NCBI GenBank assembly: GCA_944390125.1
Contig: CALXOX010000001.1
Coordinates: 120,427-184,426, forward strand
Source: an uncultured Alphaproteobacteria bacterium
GTDB taxonomy: Bacteria; Pseudomonadota; Alphaproteobacteria; Rs-D84
DNA length: 64,000 bases
Direction: 5' to 3'
In this document: in pieces, positions 24,001 through 39,000 of the stretch
How positions within the stretch are numbered: the stretch's first letter is position 1
How the letters are laid out: each line of letters opens with the position of its first letter
Position numbers: made by a program

Positions 24001-27000
24001 AATAATCTTTGCCAACGCGCTTTCTGTAGATGAGGCAAAAGGATTCATTGCCGAGCCACTGCCAGACAAATCAAACCCAGCAATTTCAGTTCCAAGATTT
24101 CCAGCACTTGGATTATTAAAATTCGCATATTTGTCTGACGCATAAGTATTTGATGTAGCAGCTGTTGAATCAGACCAAGTAATCCCCGTAGTTGTACGGC
24201 CTGCAGAACCCGTAGGATTTATACCATTTGCAGTAATAACAGATGTTAAGCTTGGTTTTCCCCCACCTGTAGTATTTAAAACTTTAATAGGATTATGTGA
24301 CGAATCTCTGAAAGTTGTTTGTCCCATATAACCGTTTGCAAAAGAAGAATACCCGTGCATAATCAATAAATAATTCTGTAAAGGAACCAATATACCGTCT
24401 ATAGCATAGTTATTTGTTGGTTGTTCCGTTGGTCTAAAATAATTAAAATCAGCTTCTCTTATGCCGCCGGCACTTGGATCCCACAAAGCCAAATTTGATT
24501 GATATGCTGCCGTACTATAAGCAATTTCTCCATCTGAAGTAAAATAAGCAGGCCCAACAGGTATTGCGTCAGATGCTGTTGCGCCGCCGCCACTACTACC
24601 GCCACCGTCTCCACCAGGACGATTACCGCTTGATGAACTGCCCCCATTTTCGTTTCCAGGATCAAGCCAATCAGTCAATAAAAAAAGTCCACCTACAACA
24701 ACGGCGGCACCCGCCGCCGCCAAAGATATCGTCTGGGCGGAGGACAATCCGCTGAACAGGCCACCACTACTTTGCGGTGTAGTTCGAGACTCATATTGTT
24801 TAATCTGTCTATCACACTGGGATGCGTCTGCACCATACATCTGCAAAATCTGTGCCGCACGAATATCATTATTCATCAAGGCAGTACAAACCAATGACAA
24901 CCCTGTACTGTCCACATAATTTACATTCGCCCCATTATTTATCAAAATTTGAACCTGCTGAATATCAGCATTTTTGGCCGCAGACAACAACTGGGCAGCA
25001 ACCATGAAATCATTATTAGGCGCGGTCGCAGCAAAGGCACCGGCTGGAAATAAAAACAACGCTAATAGCAAAAATCTGATGTATTTCATTGAAACTCTCT
25101 CTGTGCAAATTATTCTAACATACTTCTAAATTATATGTCTAGAAAAAACTTCACACAAAAAAACACCCCGTGCAAGTTTGCACGGGGATTTGGCATATAC
25201 ATATATTATATACACACTATTAGCGTGTACGACGATATGTCTTTACTTTCTTAACAACTATCAAGCTTGCTGCTGAAGAAGAATTACCAGACTGCTGTTT
25301 CAAAGAATCAACTGCAACACGTAAAGAATCTATCGCTTGACTATTATCATTAGCAAACTTGATGTCTCCACCGTTATTCACAATGATATTGCCATTGTTT
25401 ACAGAGCCTTCACCCAGCGTAATTTTTGTATTGCTGCTGTTTTTGGCCGCATTCTGCACAACGATATTATCTTCGTTTCTTGAATTGTTTTTCAAGTCAA
25501 TCGTTGTTACATGACCACGATTTGTACCGTCGCAAATTACATAAACAGTATCTTTAGGTTGTACCCTAGGTTTTGCTGGGGCTACTGGACGTTTAACAGG
25601 CTCTTGCCTTCTTGCCGGAGTTTCACAAGGTTGTTTCTTACTTTTTTCACAATCTTCCAAGCCTTCTTTATAAAAAGCTGTAGAATCACGCCACATAGCG
25701 ATAGAGTCACGCAATGCTTTATTTTCATTGCCAACATTTTCTATAGCTTCTCTGGCTCTTGCAATTTCATCACGCGCAACTGCTATGGATTCTGTTTCTT
25801 TCATTTCAGAGCAAGCCTTTGTGCACAAAACAGAAATAGCAACAACAGCCAAAGTACCTGCACTAACTGTAATAATTCTTTTCCAATTCATTTGTATCCC
25901 TTTTGTTTCTACACACTGTAATATAGTACAAAACAAATCTTTTGTCAATACATAAAAACATAATCTTTTTTGCGTTAAATTTGTATTTTCACTTTTCAGA
26001 TAAATTGTTTTTTGATATACTTCTAGGAAAGAGAGAAATGAAAAAAAATACCCTGTTCTTTATATTTTCCCTGATAACCTGCCCTGGCGCGGTCATGGCT
26101 GCAACATGTTCACAGATGAATCTTACAAGATGCTTAGATTCTGTGTGCGCAATAAACGTATCATCGAATCCTGCGGCACGTTGCCAATATTGCGGGACAT
26201 CCAGTGCTGGTACACCAAAGACAACCTCTGGCGGCATGCGCAGTTTATCACTAGGCCAATCTTCTAAATACACCCTGACCGAGGATGAACTAGAAGATGC
26301 TCCGACAGACCCAGGCCAGCGTTACGCTTGGGCGACTGCGCAATGTATTAAAAAAGTAGAGGGTTGTACTGTGGACGACGTGTCTGACACGTATGACGAA
26401 CTAATTGAACAATCATGTCGCGCAGCTGGAATTACTGCACAAATGTCCGCAACCATTGCCGACGCAAACAAGCAGACAGCAACTGCTTCAAGCTGTTTGA
26501 CATCCATACGTTCATGTCTGGTTGATGAAAAGAAGTGTGGTCCAGACTATAGCGCTTGTGAAGACGAAACTAGCTTTAATAATTTCTTTTCTGCATGCAG
26601 TGTTGAGGCTACAGGTTGCAGCGAATATATAGCTGAAATACGAACAAATCTATCTAACGCCCGCGACACAGCTATAAAAAATGCCGATGTATTGATTCAA
26701 AGTATAGTTACAAACTATCAAACAGCGCGAGAACAAAAAATTTTATCTGCCCAAGAATCTTGCAAAAATAATTCTGCACGCGAGACTTGTATAGAAACAA
26801 TTTGCGAACGCAGCATGCCAAACAAATGCGGAGTTGGTTATGATTCTGAACGTGCAACCGCAACATTGTTGTGCAAATTCTATGACTTGGCATGTGACGT
26901 TATAGAATAAAAAAATAAAAGATAGTAAATATGATGAAAGTAAAACAAACTTTTTGCTACTTGCATAAAATTTCGTACCTGACATTGTGCGCAATATTAC

Positions 27001-36000: not shown

Positions 36001-39000
36001 CACAAATTCAGCATAGTTTCAGGTCTTGTCAAACATAAATCATAAGACCCATCAGGATCATTTGGATCCATTGTGTCTTTACATGCTTGTTGAAAACAAG
36101 AAGATATATTACCAATACAGTTCTGTCTGGCGTTGTTCTCAGCAATCAATTCTGCAGATTTTACCTGAGGCGCAACTTCCTTCAAGAAAGTATCCCAAAC
36201 TTGATCGGCAACCAACTGGCACTGTTTAGTTACAGATTCACACAGAGGCTTCTTAGACAACAAAATATCATATGTAGATGCCTGAATTTCGATACTTGTT
36301 ACAGTTCCTTGTATTTCGTACGTGGAAGCCTTTTTATTACCACGTGTGCTGGTTGAATCAAACGCCGCAATTGAAGCACATCCAGAAAAGTCATCCCCAC
36401 AGCCACCTGTTGTTACCATACAGTTCTTAAACTCTACTGTACATTGACCTAAATCATACTTGTTCGCTGTCTGATACTGTTCCAGCGCTGCTTCACGCAA
36501 AGCCTGCTCTGCAGCGTATAATTTTTGTGCACTGGCATTTTTCTGTTGTTTCAAACTATTTTCATACGCAGTACAATCACTTCTTATCTGCTGAGCATAC
36601 ATTAGCTGCAACATTGACAATTCAGATTCGCACTCTGGCATTTGTTGTACACATATTTGATTGGACGCACTAAAAAGCGCATCACCTTCCTTACCTTCAA
36701 TTGGACTTTGCAATGTACCGGTATCAGCAAAAACATCATCTGACGAAAAATCAACAGGGGACAACCAAGATGTTAAATCAAGACTCTTTTTTTCTTCCTC
36801 TTTAGAGGTATCATTCATGATGGATTGCGCCACAGCATTCGCATTTGCAATTGCGACATCTGCCGCATCACCCATTTCTATTCTTTCCACACCATATGTA
36901 GCCATTTGATAAGACTGCAAATCCAACGCTTCAATCTGTGCTAATATATCATCATATTCTGCGTTTTTATCGCTGCAAATACAGCGCCCTCCACTATCAT
37001 TATCAAGCATACAGAAAGAATCCATACAACCATAATATTTCTGACGACAGGCCTCACTTACAACAACATTTTCATTTGCTGCAGCAACTGTTGTGCCTGT
37101 ACCAATAACTTTTTGCGTTGCGCCCGCACGCGCAGCAACAGTCGCACTACGTGCGGTGCTTGTCGTTGAGCTTGTGGAAGCAGATGTCGGTGTACGACTA
37201 ACCGTGGTGCGCCCAGCAGTTGCACTACGAGCCGTCGTTGACGTTGTCGTTGAGCTACGAGTACCCGTCGCACTACGAGCCGTTGTAGCACTTCTTGCAG
37301 CGGCTGTACCAGTTCGCGTTCCAGTAGTTGACGCATTATTGGTTGTACCAGAAGCCGATTGACCACGTGGATTCACTGCAGTCGCGGCATTCGCTGTAGC
37401 GCTGACACCTAGCAATAAAGCACAAAAAATTGCAATTTTTTTCATTAAAAGACCCTTCCTATTCGTACAATTCTACCATATTTCTTAAATTTATTGAAAG
37501 CATTTTTTACTAACTACATAACTTTTCTAAGAAAAAAATTCTCGCTATTGACAATTGAATATTTTGTACTATATAATAATGGGTAAGACAAAAGGACTAT
37601 AAAATGAAGAGTTCTGTAAAAATTTTTAATATAAATGACGCAAAAAAAGAGTATATAAAGACCTCTAATGGTCGACCTTTTCACAATATGGGACTAGGAT
37701 TTTCATATTATTCTCCCGCTTATGTTTTAACTAACGAAGACATACGTTGGGTATCTGGCCTAACGAAAACACGCGCAAACAAAGTTCTAACCGTTGCCGG
37801 CAGTGGCGATCAACCGATATTTTATGCCATGAATGGCGCAAAAACGGTTGACACTTTTGATATATCTTTTTGCGCAAAAGTGGCAATGGATATAAAATCC
37901 GCCGCCATCAAAAAACTAACACGTGACGAATATATAAGCATGATATTTGACATGCGCAACAAAGACAAAGTATCTGATATACATCAAATTTCAGATATAG
38001 CAACTGATATTCCACAAAATAGCGCCTATTTTATAAAAGAAATGGACGAATACCCTATTTTCAGCAATGGTCTATCACCAGAAAGCTATATAGAAATTCT
38101 GCCAACAGAAGAAGAATTTGCACAAATGAAAAAAGCGATATCTAGTCCATTCAAGTTTATTTGGACAGATATAAATTCTCTACACTCACATTTATTGCAA
38201 GAATACGATGTCATAAATTTATCAAACATTCTTGAATACATGACCCCAGAGCAAATTTCTAAAACATTAGTTTCACTGCGCAACTATGTTCGCCCCCAAG
38301 GCTATATAATTGCCCAAACAGGCAGCTGGGGGATTCACCGTAATAGAAAAGCGTTCTATGAAGCCTCTCAAAAATTTAAACACTGGGCAAAGATAGGTTT
38401 ACTACAACAAAACAAAAAGAAAGCAAACTCAGAAATGATTGTAGTTCTTCAAAGAATCAGATAAAAAAAACCGCCAAAAGGCGGTTTTCTTATTTGCTTT
38501 TCGTTGTGCGACGCTTTGCGGCAGTCTTTTTTTCAGCTGTTGCTTCTTCAGCATCTGCAGCTTCACTTTTTTCTGCTGCAGCCTTTGTTGCTTTTTCTTC
38601 AGCAGCATCGGCATTTTTTACAACTTTCTTTGCATTCACATCGCGATCAACCAATTCAATAATCGCCATAGGTGCAGCGTCACCGTAACGGAAACCAGCT
38701 TTCAATACACGTGTGTAACCGCCTGGACGTTTCTCATAACGAGGGCCCAAAACAGTAAACAATTTTTTTACTGTTGCAGAAGAATTATTACCCAATTCAC
38801 TTGCAACCAAACGACGATTTGCAACTGTATCAACCTTTGCACGTGTAATTAGCTTTTCAACAACACTACGCAAATCTTTTGCTTTTGGCAAAGTTGTTTT
38901 AATCTGTTCTTTTTCAATCAAATTTTTTGCTAAGCCAATAAACATAGCCTTGCGTGCATTAGTGTCGCGATTGAAAGTACGACCTGCTTTCATATGTCTC

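Follow-up and report, generated by a model that had tools for sequence, protein, structure and literature searches.

Cysteine-rich gene cluster and its setting

The window analysed here is a stretch of 64,000 nucleotides (nt) from an uncultured alphaproteobacterium (assembly GCA_944390125.1, contig CALXOX010000001.1, positions 120,427 to 184,426). Its source is a Candidatus Enterousia / Rs-D84-type organism with a genome smaller than 1 Mb. The window carries a cluster of genes for exported, Cys-rich proteins, here called A, B, C, D, F and G, together with the gene of a membrane protein, E (Table 1). The cluster spans 11.4 kb, more than 1% of an Rs-D84-type genome. It is chromosomal, with a ribosomal-protein operon including rpoA and secY on one side (38490 to ~57100) and tpiA, grpE and a SurA-like gene as upstream neighbours. 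The C-terminal third of G is exchanged between strains together with F, and the cluster as a whole may encode a lineage-specific envelope complex whose variable parts are displayed to partner cells for contact.

An open reading frame (ORF) listing recovered every gene that the original prediction, made from the sequence alone, had placed at this locus, at the same positions. Signal peptides had been predicted for seven proteins, and A, B, C, D, F, G and H each begin with a basic n-region, a hydrophobic core and an AxA-type site; judged by eye on the translations, the seven cleavage sites are VMA/A, VAA/V, AMA/D, VSA/A, GFA/K, ANA/A and ADA/A. The unusual Cys richness ascribed to these proteins was likewise borne out, at 3.0-10.5% against 0-2.3% in the 34 other ORFs of the window (21 Cys in A, 17 in B, 23 in C, 28 in D, 15 in F, 30 in G and 19 in H). 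Since the other exported proteins of the window contain just 0-0.5% Cys (the autotransporters at 1373-4399 and 21385-25089, the latter being protein I, and three outer-membrane proteins at 58412-60847), Cys richness is a trait of the cluster and not of the secretome. The six Cys-rich genes are not strictly consecutive as had been thought, because D and F are separated by E, which has a single Cys and lacks a cleavable signal peptide.

Four transcription units can be distinguished, namely A-B-C, D, G with or without F, and a separate one for E. Promoter-like matches are no more frequent across the region than in shuffled sequence. A second perfect promoter-like site (TTGACA-N16/18-TATAAT class) lies at 37548-37577, upstream of a DUF3419 methyltransferase-like gene.

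Table 1. Features of the cluster and its flanks (positions in the window; aa, amino acids).
Feature	Position	Strand	Description
A	26038..26910	+	290 aa, exported; 20 Cys in mature part
B	26931..28418	+	Signal peptide, Ser/Thr-rich linker, 15-Cys domain, hydrophobic segment 376-394, hypervariable tail
C	28422..30749	+	CarboxypepD_reg head, four 4-Cys repeats, two hydrophobic segments, OmpA-like tail
D	31083..33158	-	Separate family; signal peptide, Pro-rich linker, N-region, loop, C-region
E	33295..34311	+	Two N-terminal transmembrane segments, acidic Pro-rich linker, conserved C-terminal domain; 1 Cys
F	34363..35013	-	216 aa, exported, 15 Cys; start 8 nt past the G stop
G	35022..37445	-	Signal peptide, linker 22-120, Cys-stapled core 121 to ~520, variable C-terminal domain
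H	20006..20551	-	181 aa, exported, 19 Cys (10.5%), without the module
Neighbours I and J	21385..25891	-	Often beside A in related genomes; putative cluster members
4-Cys module of A, residues 153-174, CLTSIRSCLVDEKKCGPDYSAC	26494..26559	+	
4-Cys module 1 of B, residues 150-169	27378..27437	+	
4-Cys module 2 of B, residues 221-240	27591..27650	+	
4-Cys module 1 of G, residues 335-356	36378..36443	-	
4-Cys module 2 of G, residues 520-541	35823..35888	-	Second Cys is Leu527 in the window allele
Hypervariable cassette, G residues ~520-807 plus F	34363..35885	-	Different sequence in a strain with 98.8% identical flanks
Strain-variable patch in C, residues ~111-178, first Cys repeat	28753..28955	+	~200 nt unaligned with the same-species locus L084
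Terminator-like hairpin	31034..31057	-	Immediately past the D stop codon
Promoter-like site, perfect TTGACA-16-TATAAT	33259..33286	+	Upstream of E

A six-cysteine unit shared by A, B and G

The short motif CGxD[FY]xxC, which had first drawn attention to the locus, proved in ortholog alignments to be the end of a four-Cys module, C-x6-C-x4-6-C-G-x-D-[FY]-x2-C. This module is followed by a C-x5-7-C pair to give a full unit of six Cys over ~45-75 aa, of which there are two copies in A, two in B and three in G. Within the window, CG..[FYW]..C occurs in frame only in A (residue 167), B (162, 221 and 233) and G (349 and 534), and the remaining four six-frame matches fall in non-coding or stop-containing frames. 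C, the protein with the CarboxypepD_reg and OmpA-like ends, is without it, and the motif itself is less constant than was supposed: its Gly and Phe/Tyr positions are conserved in fewer than 70% of A orthologs, where only the Cys are conserved.

That the motif recurs beyond chance was supported by hidden Markov models (HMMs) built from single families, which recovered the other families among the six-frame ORFs of the window. An HMM from the G copies alone found A (E 1.9e-6) and B (2.7e-6) among 340 such ORFs, the next match standing at 0.07, while one built from A alone found both G copies (7.5e-7) and B (1.5e-4); the HMM from B alone was weaker, with A at 0.089. When a joint module HMM was run on 3982 ORFs from 79 related loci, it matched 32 ORFs of the A family, 35 of B and 104 of G, and nothing besides. 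Profile-profile alignment placed A 92-290 colinear with G 253-493, Cys on Cys, and aligned the Cys domain of B with A (P 7.5e-7, 105 columns) and G (7.8e-6), and the third G unit with A (8.2e-7). The G core holds 20 Cys between residues 133 and 489, the same number as A, and with the colinear alignment this marks A as a compact version of the G core. The description of a paralogous locus therefore stands for A, B and G but not for C, D, E, F and H; paralogy of all six genes was ruled out with hhalign, which linked only A, B and G and otherwise gave a weak similarity of B and D around their hydrophobic segment (P 1.7e-4). The six-Cys helical unit, D and E are new families that could be added to domain databases.

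Conservation across the clade

Homologs of G are found in 292 GTDB species representatives. Seventy-nine loci centred on G homologs were fetched, and the window proteins were placed in them by tblastn. All but one of these loci are labelled as uncultured Alphaproteobacteria, proteobacteria, 'Rickettsiales' or Candidatus Enterousia, from animal or human gut, and they include one 958-kb circular metagenome-assembled genome (MAG); the exception, L036 (CAVGNU010000007.1), was deposited as 'Bacteroides fragilis' and looks mis-binned. The gene order G-E-D-C-B-A-(J)-I is kept in most species. Of the 45 loci that extend 10 kb to either side of G, 40 contain D and E, 26-28 contain A, B and C, one contains H and none contains F, with some A, B and C genes cut off in this count because the cluster exceeds the 10-kb flank. 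Wherever D or E occurs, the two come as a pair, and the linkage of the cluster outlasts inversions and relocations (e.g., in L014, L041, L042, L051 and L067). H, found in three of the 79 loci (L043, L050 and L066; weakly in L048), does not belong to the core, and F is likewise sporadic.

Clustered at 90% identity, G is the most widespread family (>1000 clusters), followed by D (768) and E (461). Among the matches listed, none for G or E bears a Pfam domain and two for D do, one PF05887 (low-complexity) and the other PF13229/PF23763 on a 933-aa protein. The named homologs of G, D and E are all 'hypothetical' and from Alphaproteobacteria or Rickettsiales MAGs, most matches being nameless, and no annotated outgroup emerged from an exhaustive profile search with G or from word-index searches with G, D and E.

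Two further observations concern the surroundings of G in related genomes. Another family of Cys-rich ORFs, ~800-860 aa long (e.g., ...CRIYTPGEQ...CKEGYF...), lies within 10 kb of G in several species (L051:19542-22136(-), L069:18427-20967(-), L054:15523-18015(-), L023:17530-19917(-)); it matches G weakly and is without the six-Cys unit register. At positions 4400-9900 of L080, from a termite-gut-type 'Rickettsiales bacterium' MAG, a divergent G homolog stands beside Phage_capsid_2 and Phage_T7_Capsid scaffold-like genes, and L081 is alike.

A recombining cassette of the G C-terminus and F

One of the related loci, L084, belongs to the same species as the window and has the same gene order and gene sizes, with blastn identities of 98.8, 98.4 and 96.8% over 22.9 kb. 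Window positions 34362-35810, covering the G C-terminus and F, nevertheless fail to align with the corresponding 1.27 kb of L084, and codon identity between the two falls from 54-60 of 60 to 35 of 60 at G residue ~521, the start of the third six-Cys unit. Other G proteins, too, are related differently in the core and in the C-terminus. P0010 shows 92.4% identity in the core against 99.6% in the C-terminus, for P0012 the two values are 96.5 and 18.8%, and P0018 has a third type of C-terminus. Across orthologs, mean identity is 64% in the core and 23% in the C-terminal domain. When pairs among 240 G homologs were scored by identity x coverage, 29% of those with an N-terminal score of at least 95 had a C-terminal score below 40. 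Strains exchange this third of G, along with F, by recombination. No repeats that would represent silent donor cassettes for the G C-terminus were present within the 64-kb window.

The alternative G C-termini are diverged forms of one domain, because they retain the invariant C561, C592, C604, C610 and C715 together with Gly and Arg positions. Short G alleles (785-811 aa) are always followed by F, which occurs only there (the window, L025 and L052), whereas long alleles (~900-1025 aa) have no F downstream; in one long form, a hydrophobic stretch rich in Gly and a Cys-rich end are part of the G polypeptide itself. F is not a frameshifted end of G, as it has its own GAGG resembling a ribosome-binding site, start codon and signal peptide, and orthologs with the same layout; a hairpin terminator follows it.

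Protein architectures

G begins, after its signal peptide, with a 99-aa linker rich in Arg, Ser, Thr and Ala (67% S+T+A, 11 R/K, 0 D/E) whose ARSAT-like repeats are conserved. The Ser/Thr/Ala-rich linkers that had been described are strong in G and B but merely short in A. An AlphaFold2 (AF2) model of G from 103 sequences is almost all-helical, with a predicted local distance difference test (pLDDT) of 65 and a predicted template modelling score of 0.44. The conserved domain of B (65% mean ortholog identity) comprises two six-Cys units plus three further Cys, and is followed by a Gly/Ala-rich hydrophobic segment of 20 aa (73% conserved) and a tail of 35-360 aa with 22% identity, which is charged and Ser/Thr-rich in the window strain and consists of small Cys-rich repeats in other species instead.

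C has the head, repeats and tail that had been claimed for it, with a CarboxypepD_reg match (E 4e-16), four C-x4-C-x2-[GN][YF] repeats and an OmpA-like end. Its order is a CarboxypepD_reg/SusC-N-terminal-like domain (23-107), Cys repeats (~115-320), a hydrophobic segment (353-374), a 127-aa loop with one invariant Cys (C395), a second hydrophobic segment (502-520), a linker and an OmpA-like peptidoglycan-binding domain (642-760). The N-terminus scores 59.2 and 45.2 bits against PF13715 and PF13620 (gathering thresholds 32.2 and 32.3), with matches in 23 of 27 orthologs, and the family profile matches the SusC N-terminal domain at 1.5e-21. OmpA (PF00691) matches 25 of the 27 orthologs (best E 4e-19), the window protein itself scoring 26.0 bits, slightly under the 27.2 cut-off; with the family profile, E is ~2e-23 for 4erh and 2mqe, structures of the OmpA C-domain, and 1e-16 for YiaD. 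A match to the CPL1-like PF21671 (36.1 bits; gathering threshold 27.4) covers model positions 32-60 only and recurs in 4 of 27 orthologs. The block from the first to the second hydrophobic segment (323-521) is invariant in length, with 58-66% identity, while the number of Cys repeats before it varies, giving 0-40 Cys in that region among orthologs. In most C orthologs the stretch from the second hydrophobic segment to the OmpA-like domain contains an additional block rich in Cys (CP...TGTYPNC.C..., CxC repeats), where the window protein has a Cys-free acidic linker.

D carries an invariant RMPxMP in its Pro-rich linker, an N-region of fixed length (9 Cys, 77% identity), hydrophobic segments at 332-350 and 556-580 that enclose a loop of 132-236 aa with 26-32% identity, and a C-region with 7 Cys and 69% identity. 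AF2 modelled D poorly (pLDDT 57) and gave no structure for its best-conserved stretch, 210-355. The hydrophobic segments of B, C and D are of fixed length and 58-78% conserved, above their flanks.

Among the less conserved or neighbouring proteins, H contains motifs (e.g., C..G[FY]Y......C..CP) reminiscent of eukaryotic furin/VSP-like repeats; it has no Pfam match and is unrelated to A, B and G. I, an exported protein of 1234 aa, carries two ankyrin repeats directly behind its signal peptide. Its other features are a hydrophobic segment rich in Gly (120-138), a linker of Gly and Ser, and Phe as the C-terminal residue, and it could be an outer-membrane partner of the cluster. J is 223 aa long and N-terminally anchored.

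Paired behaviour of the cysteines

Cys counts across orthologs were taken for whole proteins and for the parts that the hydrophobic segments delimit. All 29 A orthologs have exactly 20 Cys in the mature protein, the count in D is even in 60 of 61, and that in G is even in 79 of 97 (mode 38). The D N-region always has an odd number (9 in most, or 13 or 17), as does its C-region (7 in most, or 5), which suggests one bond between the two; the D loop has 4-12 Cys, an even number in 60 of 61 orthologs, and would be made up of self-contained pairs. In C, the N- and C-regions hold even numbers, and all 29 orthologs have a single Cys in the central loop. B has 15 Cys in its N-region in 29 of 31 orthologs and 0-26 in its tail, even in 30 of 31. 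The odd Cys of B and the single Cys of the C loop could form a B-C intermolecular bond or be free thiols.

Paired gain and loss points the same way. Two insert columns with Cys in G co-occur in 62 of 97 sequences, and positions 784 and 800 agree in 98%. Cys527 and Cys553 are lost jointly in three of three cases (the window, L025 and L005) and neither is lost singly; the window allele has Leu527 in place of the second Cys and Ile at the Cys553 position. As these are cysteines 2 and 5 of the unit, C2-C5 bonds are predicted throughout, joining residues 342 to 402 and 527 to 553 in G, 160 to 187 in A and 157 to 184 in B. Disulfide stabilisation, as originally proposed, is thus supported indirectly by invariant Cys, even counts and paired changes. 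We infer that the Cys-rich proteins fold oxidatively into disulfide-stapled, mostly helical domains.

Comparison with known families and systems

The proteins had been called undescribed, and A, B, D, E, F, G and H indeed have no significant match in Pfam, NCBIfam, PHROGs, PADLOC or PDB sequences. Searches of the first four with ten proteins of the region and the ortholog sets of C, D and E returned only the two ends of C, its borderline CPL1-like repeat and low-complexity matches. PDB sequence profiles gave no relatives of G, D or E. Foldseek with the G model reached a best E of 0.35, its matches being non-specific helical ones, and the low-confidence D model had no fold match. PHROGs and PADLOC otherwise yielded marginal matches (E ~1e-3) and the OmpA part of ZorB (E 7.7e-6, confined to that part). 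For C, the match to the SusC/RagA model TIGR04056 (91 bits, cut-off 368) was confined to residues 22-109, aligned with model positions 2-85 of 981; TIGR03350 (TssL) gave 34.3 bits against 139.8 and MotB ~17 against 300, and the cluster contains no MotA/ExbB/ZorA/TssM-type or type VI secretion partner. The glycine-zipper families PF13488, PF13436, PF13441 and PF05433 matched no window protein at E<=0.1, Gly-zipper_YMGG matched weakly in 2 of 45 D orthologs, and no Cys stands at +1 of the cleavage sites. A phage origin, considered because capsid-like genes stand beside one distant G homolog, was rejected for this locus on the absence of any significant PHROG match, its chromosomal position beside the ribosomal operon and its core-gene-like conservation. 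Neither sequence nor, within the limits of the models, fold places the A/B/G superfamily, D, E or F in a described family. No described system is of such composition, yet lineage-specific hypothetical envelope proteins are common in uncultured bacteria.

The nearest functional analogue found is TraA/TraB of Myxococcus xanthus, a polymorphic Cys-rich receptor with an OmpA-like partner that mediates kin-specific outer-membrane fusion (PMC3325183). Both systems have an exported, polymorphic recognition protein, Cys-rich and presumed disulfide-bonded, with an OmpA-like partner and a proposed role in cell-cell contact. Here, however, variation lies in a helical C-terminal part, six families take the place of two, and the function is putative. 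PA14, TIGR04201, TIGR03901 and MYXO-CTERM gave no match, the OmpA-like domain in C being the only TraB-like feature.

The chlamydial outer membrane complex (OmcA, OmcB, MOMP and Pmps) likewise brings together Cys-rich exported envelope proteins in a host- or partner-dependent Gram-negative with a small genome, and a PMP-repeat autotransporter lies in the same window as the cluster. No sequence relation exists, however, as Chlam_OMP3 and Chlam_OMP6 (OmcA/OmcB) matched none of the ten proteins at E<=0.1; the G model is near all-helical and Cys parity here points mostly to bonds within one chain. As a further difference, Rs-D84 genomes keep MreB, RodA and MrdA, so presumably also peptidoglycan (PMC12306168). 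Among the glycine-zipper and OmpA-like envelope proteins (E. coli YiaD, Gly-zipper_OmpA / Omp, Rickettsia 17-kDa antigen and SlyB-type lipoproteins), C resembles YiaD in having a Gly-rich hydrophobic segment followed by an OmpA-like domain, but it has no lipobox and has two hydrophobic segments with the 127-aa loop and a large N-terminal part of CarboxypepD_reg and Cys repeats. MotB, TssL and ZorB share with C a membrane segment, linker and OmpA-like domain; the scores lie far under the cut-offs and the N-terminal architecture differs. Helicobacter Hcp and Sel1-like proteins are, as predicted here, exported helical repeats in which each helix pair is stapled by a disulfide, although no Sel1 or Sel1-like repeat match was obtained and the unit here has six Cys, C-x6-C spacing and 45-75 aa. 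Neisseria pilin and Opa and Anaplasma Msp2 are surface proteins with recombining variable cassettes. They share with G a conserved scaffold and a sharply bounded variable segment with conflicting relationships; in G, by contrast, the variation is allelic between strains, there is no sequence relation, and the window holds no silent donors.

Anchoring and proposed function

Envelope anchoring, which had been proposed, is supported by the OmpA-like domain of C and by the conserved Gly/Ala-rich hydrophobic segments of B, C and D. SusC-type N-terminal domains and OmpA-like domains are periplasmic in characterised proteins. If both ends of C are periplasmic, it crosses a membrane either not at all or twice. 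The Cys-bearing regions flanking the hydrophobic segments of B and D look extracytoplasmic, which favours helices that cross the outer membrane or dips that do not cross. An inner-membrane location would fit a MotB/TssL-like C and its single loop Cys, yet would put Cys-rich repeats in the cytoplasm.

Rs-D84 organisms have genomes below 1 Mb and lack the tricarboxylic acid cycle, respiration, flagella and the standard sugar, amino-acid and peptide transporters (PMC12306168). They are probably obligate symbionts or parasites, with metabolites proposed to come from other cells, and they and Enterousia are widespread in human and animal guts (PMC12306168). The cluster is a concrete candidate for the interaction apparatus of this lineage and offers targets for antibodies, electron cryotomography and enrichment. 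One of its components varies between strains as a specificity determinant would, with clear cassette polymorphism inside a species. For the surface or adhesion role of the original prediction the evidence is indirect, consisting of the recombining cassette of the G C-terminus and F, the variable regions of B, C and D and the dependence on partners proposed for the clade.

Our preferred interpretation, held tentatively and with somewhat less than an even chance of being right, is that the cluster encodes a lineage-specific, disulfide-stabilised envelope complex that displays variable parts to partner cells for contact. The proteins would assemble into one complex, with B, C and D fixing it in a membrane through their hydrophobic segments and C linking it to peptidoglycan. 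Its body would consist of A, the G core, the Cys domain of B, the N- and C-regions of D and the C loop. The parts exposed outward or to a variable ligand would be the G C-terminus with F, the D loop, the B tail and the C repeats, with G as the specificity-determining tip. The most likely job of such a complex would be contact with, or adhesion to, partner cells or a host surface, on behalf of a transporter-poor organism without respiration.

Several points weigh against this interpretation. Assembly into a single complex is drawn from synteny alone, and AF2 confidence is moderate for G (pLDDT 65) and low for D (57). Even Cys totals partly follow from repeats that each have an even number of Cys. 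No DsbA, DsbB or VKOR oxidase was seen in the 64-kb window or in the ~20-kb loci, where phmmer with E. coli DsbA and DsbB gave no match, a result uninformative for the whole genome. Classical DsbB needs a respiratory chain, and the Rs-D84 clade is without one; dozens of predicted structural disulfides in a strict fermenter without quinone-linked respiration, whose other exported proteins avoid Cys, pose a biochemical puzzle. The positive-inside rule, Cys parity and conservation give conflicting hints on topology. The variable ends of C probably lie in the periplasm, and what it conserves best is the loop opposite them, which does not fit a simple rule that equates variation with surface exposure. 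The variability could also reflect phage or immune pressure on a purely structural complex. Finally, in divergent 'Rickettsiales bacterium' MAGs, G stands alone amid housekeeping genes, so that linkage is a trait of the Enterousia-like part of the clade.

The last point is also what a coincidental neighbourhood of unrelated, lineage-specific secreted proteins would lead one to expect, as is the absence of homology between C, D and E on the one hand and A, B and G on the other. We regard such a coincidence as very unlikely, given linkage kept through inversions and relocations in dozens of species, the constant adjacency of E and D, the confinement of unusual Cys richness to the cluster and the likeness of B and D around the hydrophobic segment. 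A structural exoskeleton or tether is unlikely but deserves more weight. In this reading a disulfide-cross-linked scaffold of periplasm and outer envelope, comparable to the chlamydial outer membrane complex or to Lpp/Pal/OmpA tethers, would stabilise the reduced-genome cell mechanically without any adhesion and vary under phage or host-immune pressure. It agrees with the high conservation and fixed length of the core regions, with the peptidoglycan-binding domain and presumably periplasmic ends of C, with the PMP-repeat autotransporter in the window, and with the conserved odd Cys of B (15 in the N-region) and the C loop (one), which would permit intermolecular cross-links. Yet nearly all Cys are accounted for by even intramolecular numbers, there is no similarity to OmcA/OmcB or a known tether, and a recombining C-terminal cassette with a co-varying partner gene is not obviously needed for a scaffold. 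The sharply bounded variable part behind a conserved G N-terminus, with a small co-varying gene 8 nt downstream, also recalls polymorphic toxins, and the G C-terminus would then be a toxin and F its immunity protein, as in contact-dependent inhibition (CDI), Rhs and MafB systems. We rejected this reading, which is hardly credible, because the alternative C-termini are homologous on a common Cys scaffold and long alleles have no F-like gene downstream. F is moreover itself exported with 15 Cys, and no toxin, immunity or delivery-system domain was matched in Pfam, NCBIfam or PADLOC.

It is rather unlikely, but conceivable, that the cluster is a membrane-active machine for exchange or uptake, in which B, C and D form oligomers through their glycine-zipper segments, giving a helical pore or a membrane-perturbing, fusion-peptide-like element, and the G tip picks the partner, for outer-membrane exchange or metabolite uptake functionally like that of TraA/TraB. 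Zippers of the GxxxG type drive the formation of homo-oligomeric channels, and the Gly/Ala-rich segments here are more conserved than their flanks. A polymorphic Cys-rich receptor with an OmpA-like partner matches the TraAB architecture (PMC3325183), and the clade is without standard transporters (PMC12306168). The case is nonetheless one of pure analogy, with no PA14, TIGR04201 repeat or MYXO-CTERM, and pores or fusion are putative; the hydrophobic segments may be ordinary anchors. A more specific version, which we consider doubtful and a shade less probable still, is a contact-and-feeding organelle of an obligate epibiont or parasite, by analogy with TraAB: the recombining G tip, with F, would select the partner, and the glycine zippers of B, C and D would enter the partner membrane or fuse with it, exchanging lipids, proteins or metabolites. 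If true, this would be a new kind of cell-cell exchange, TraAB-like but unrelated, and a strict anaerobe would need non-classical, quinone-independent formation of periplasmic disulfides.

Other features of the window

Some features of the window lie outside the cluster. The autotransporter at 1373-4399, with Chlamydia PMP repeats, a beta-domain and one Cys, is contained in window positions 1-4412, and direct repeats (302-365 and 3620-3683; 1188-1274 and 4326-4412) indicate a second, paralogous autotransporter gene in tandem upstream of it. A probable integrated element follows at 4823-13237, beside a tRNA-Gln gene (4823-4896), with a GC content of 30-34% against ~40% elsewhere. It encodes a large serine recombinase (4864-6408), an AAA_21/AbiEii-type ATPase (7141-8331), a weakly Rep-like ORF (10214-10729) and further ORFs without matches. 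A choloylglycine (bile-salt) hydrolase family protein at 14117-15205, whose signal peptide ends in Cys (…ADA|C), fits a gut habitat. Three small exported proteins at 58412-59185, 59300-59878 and 60083-60847 have 0-1 Cys and no Pfam match. Two of them share near-identical signal peptides, and a 195-nt repeat (59816-60010 and 60785-60979) is 83% identical; the three are probably paralogous outer-membrane proteins.

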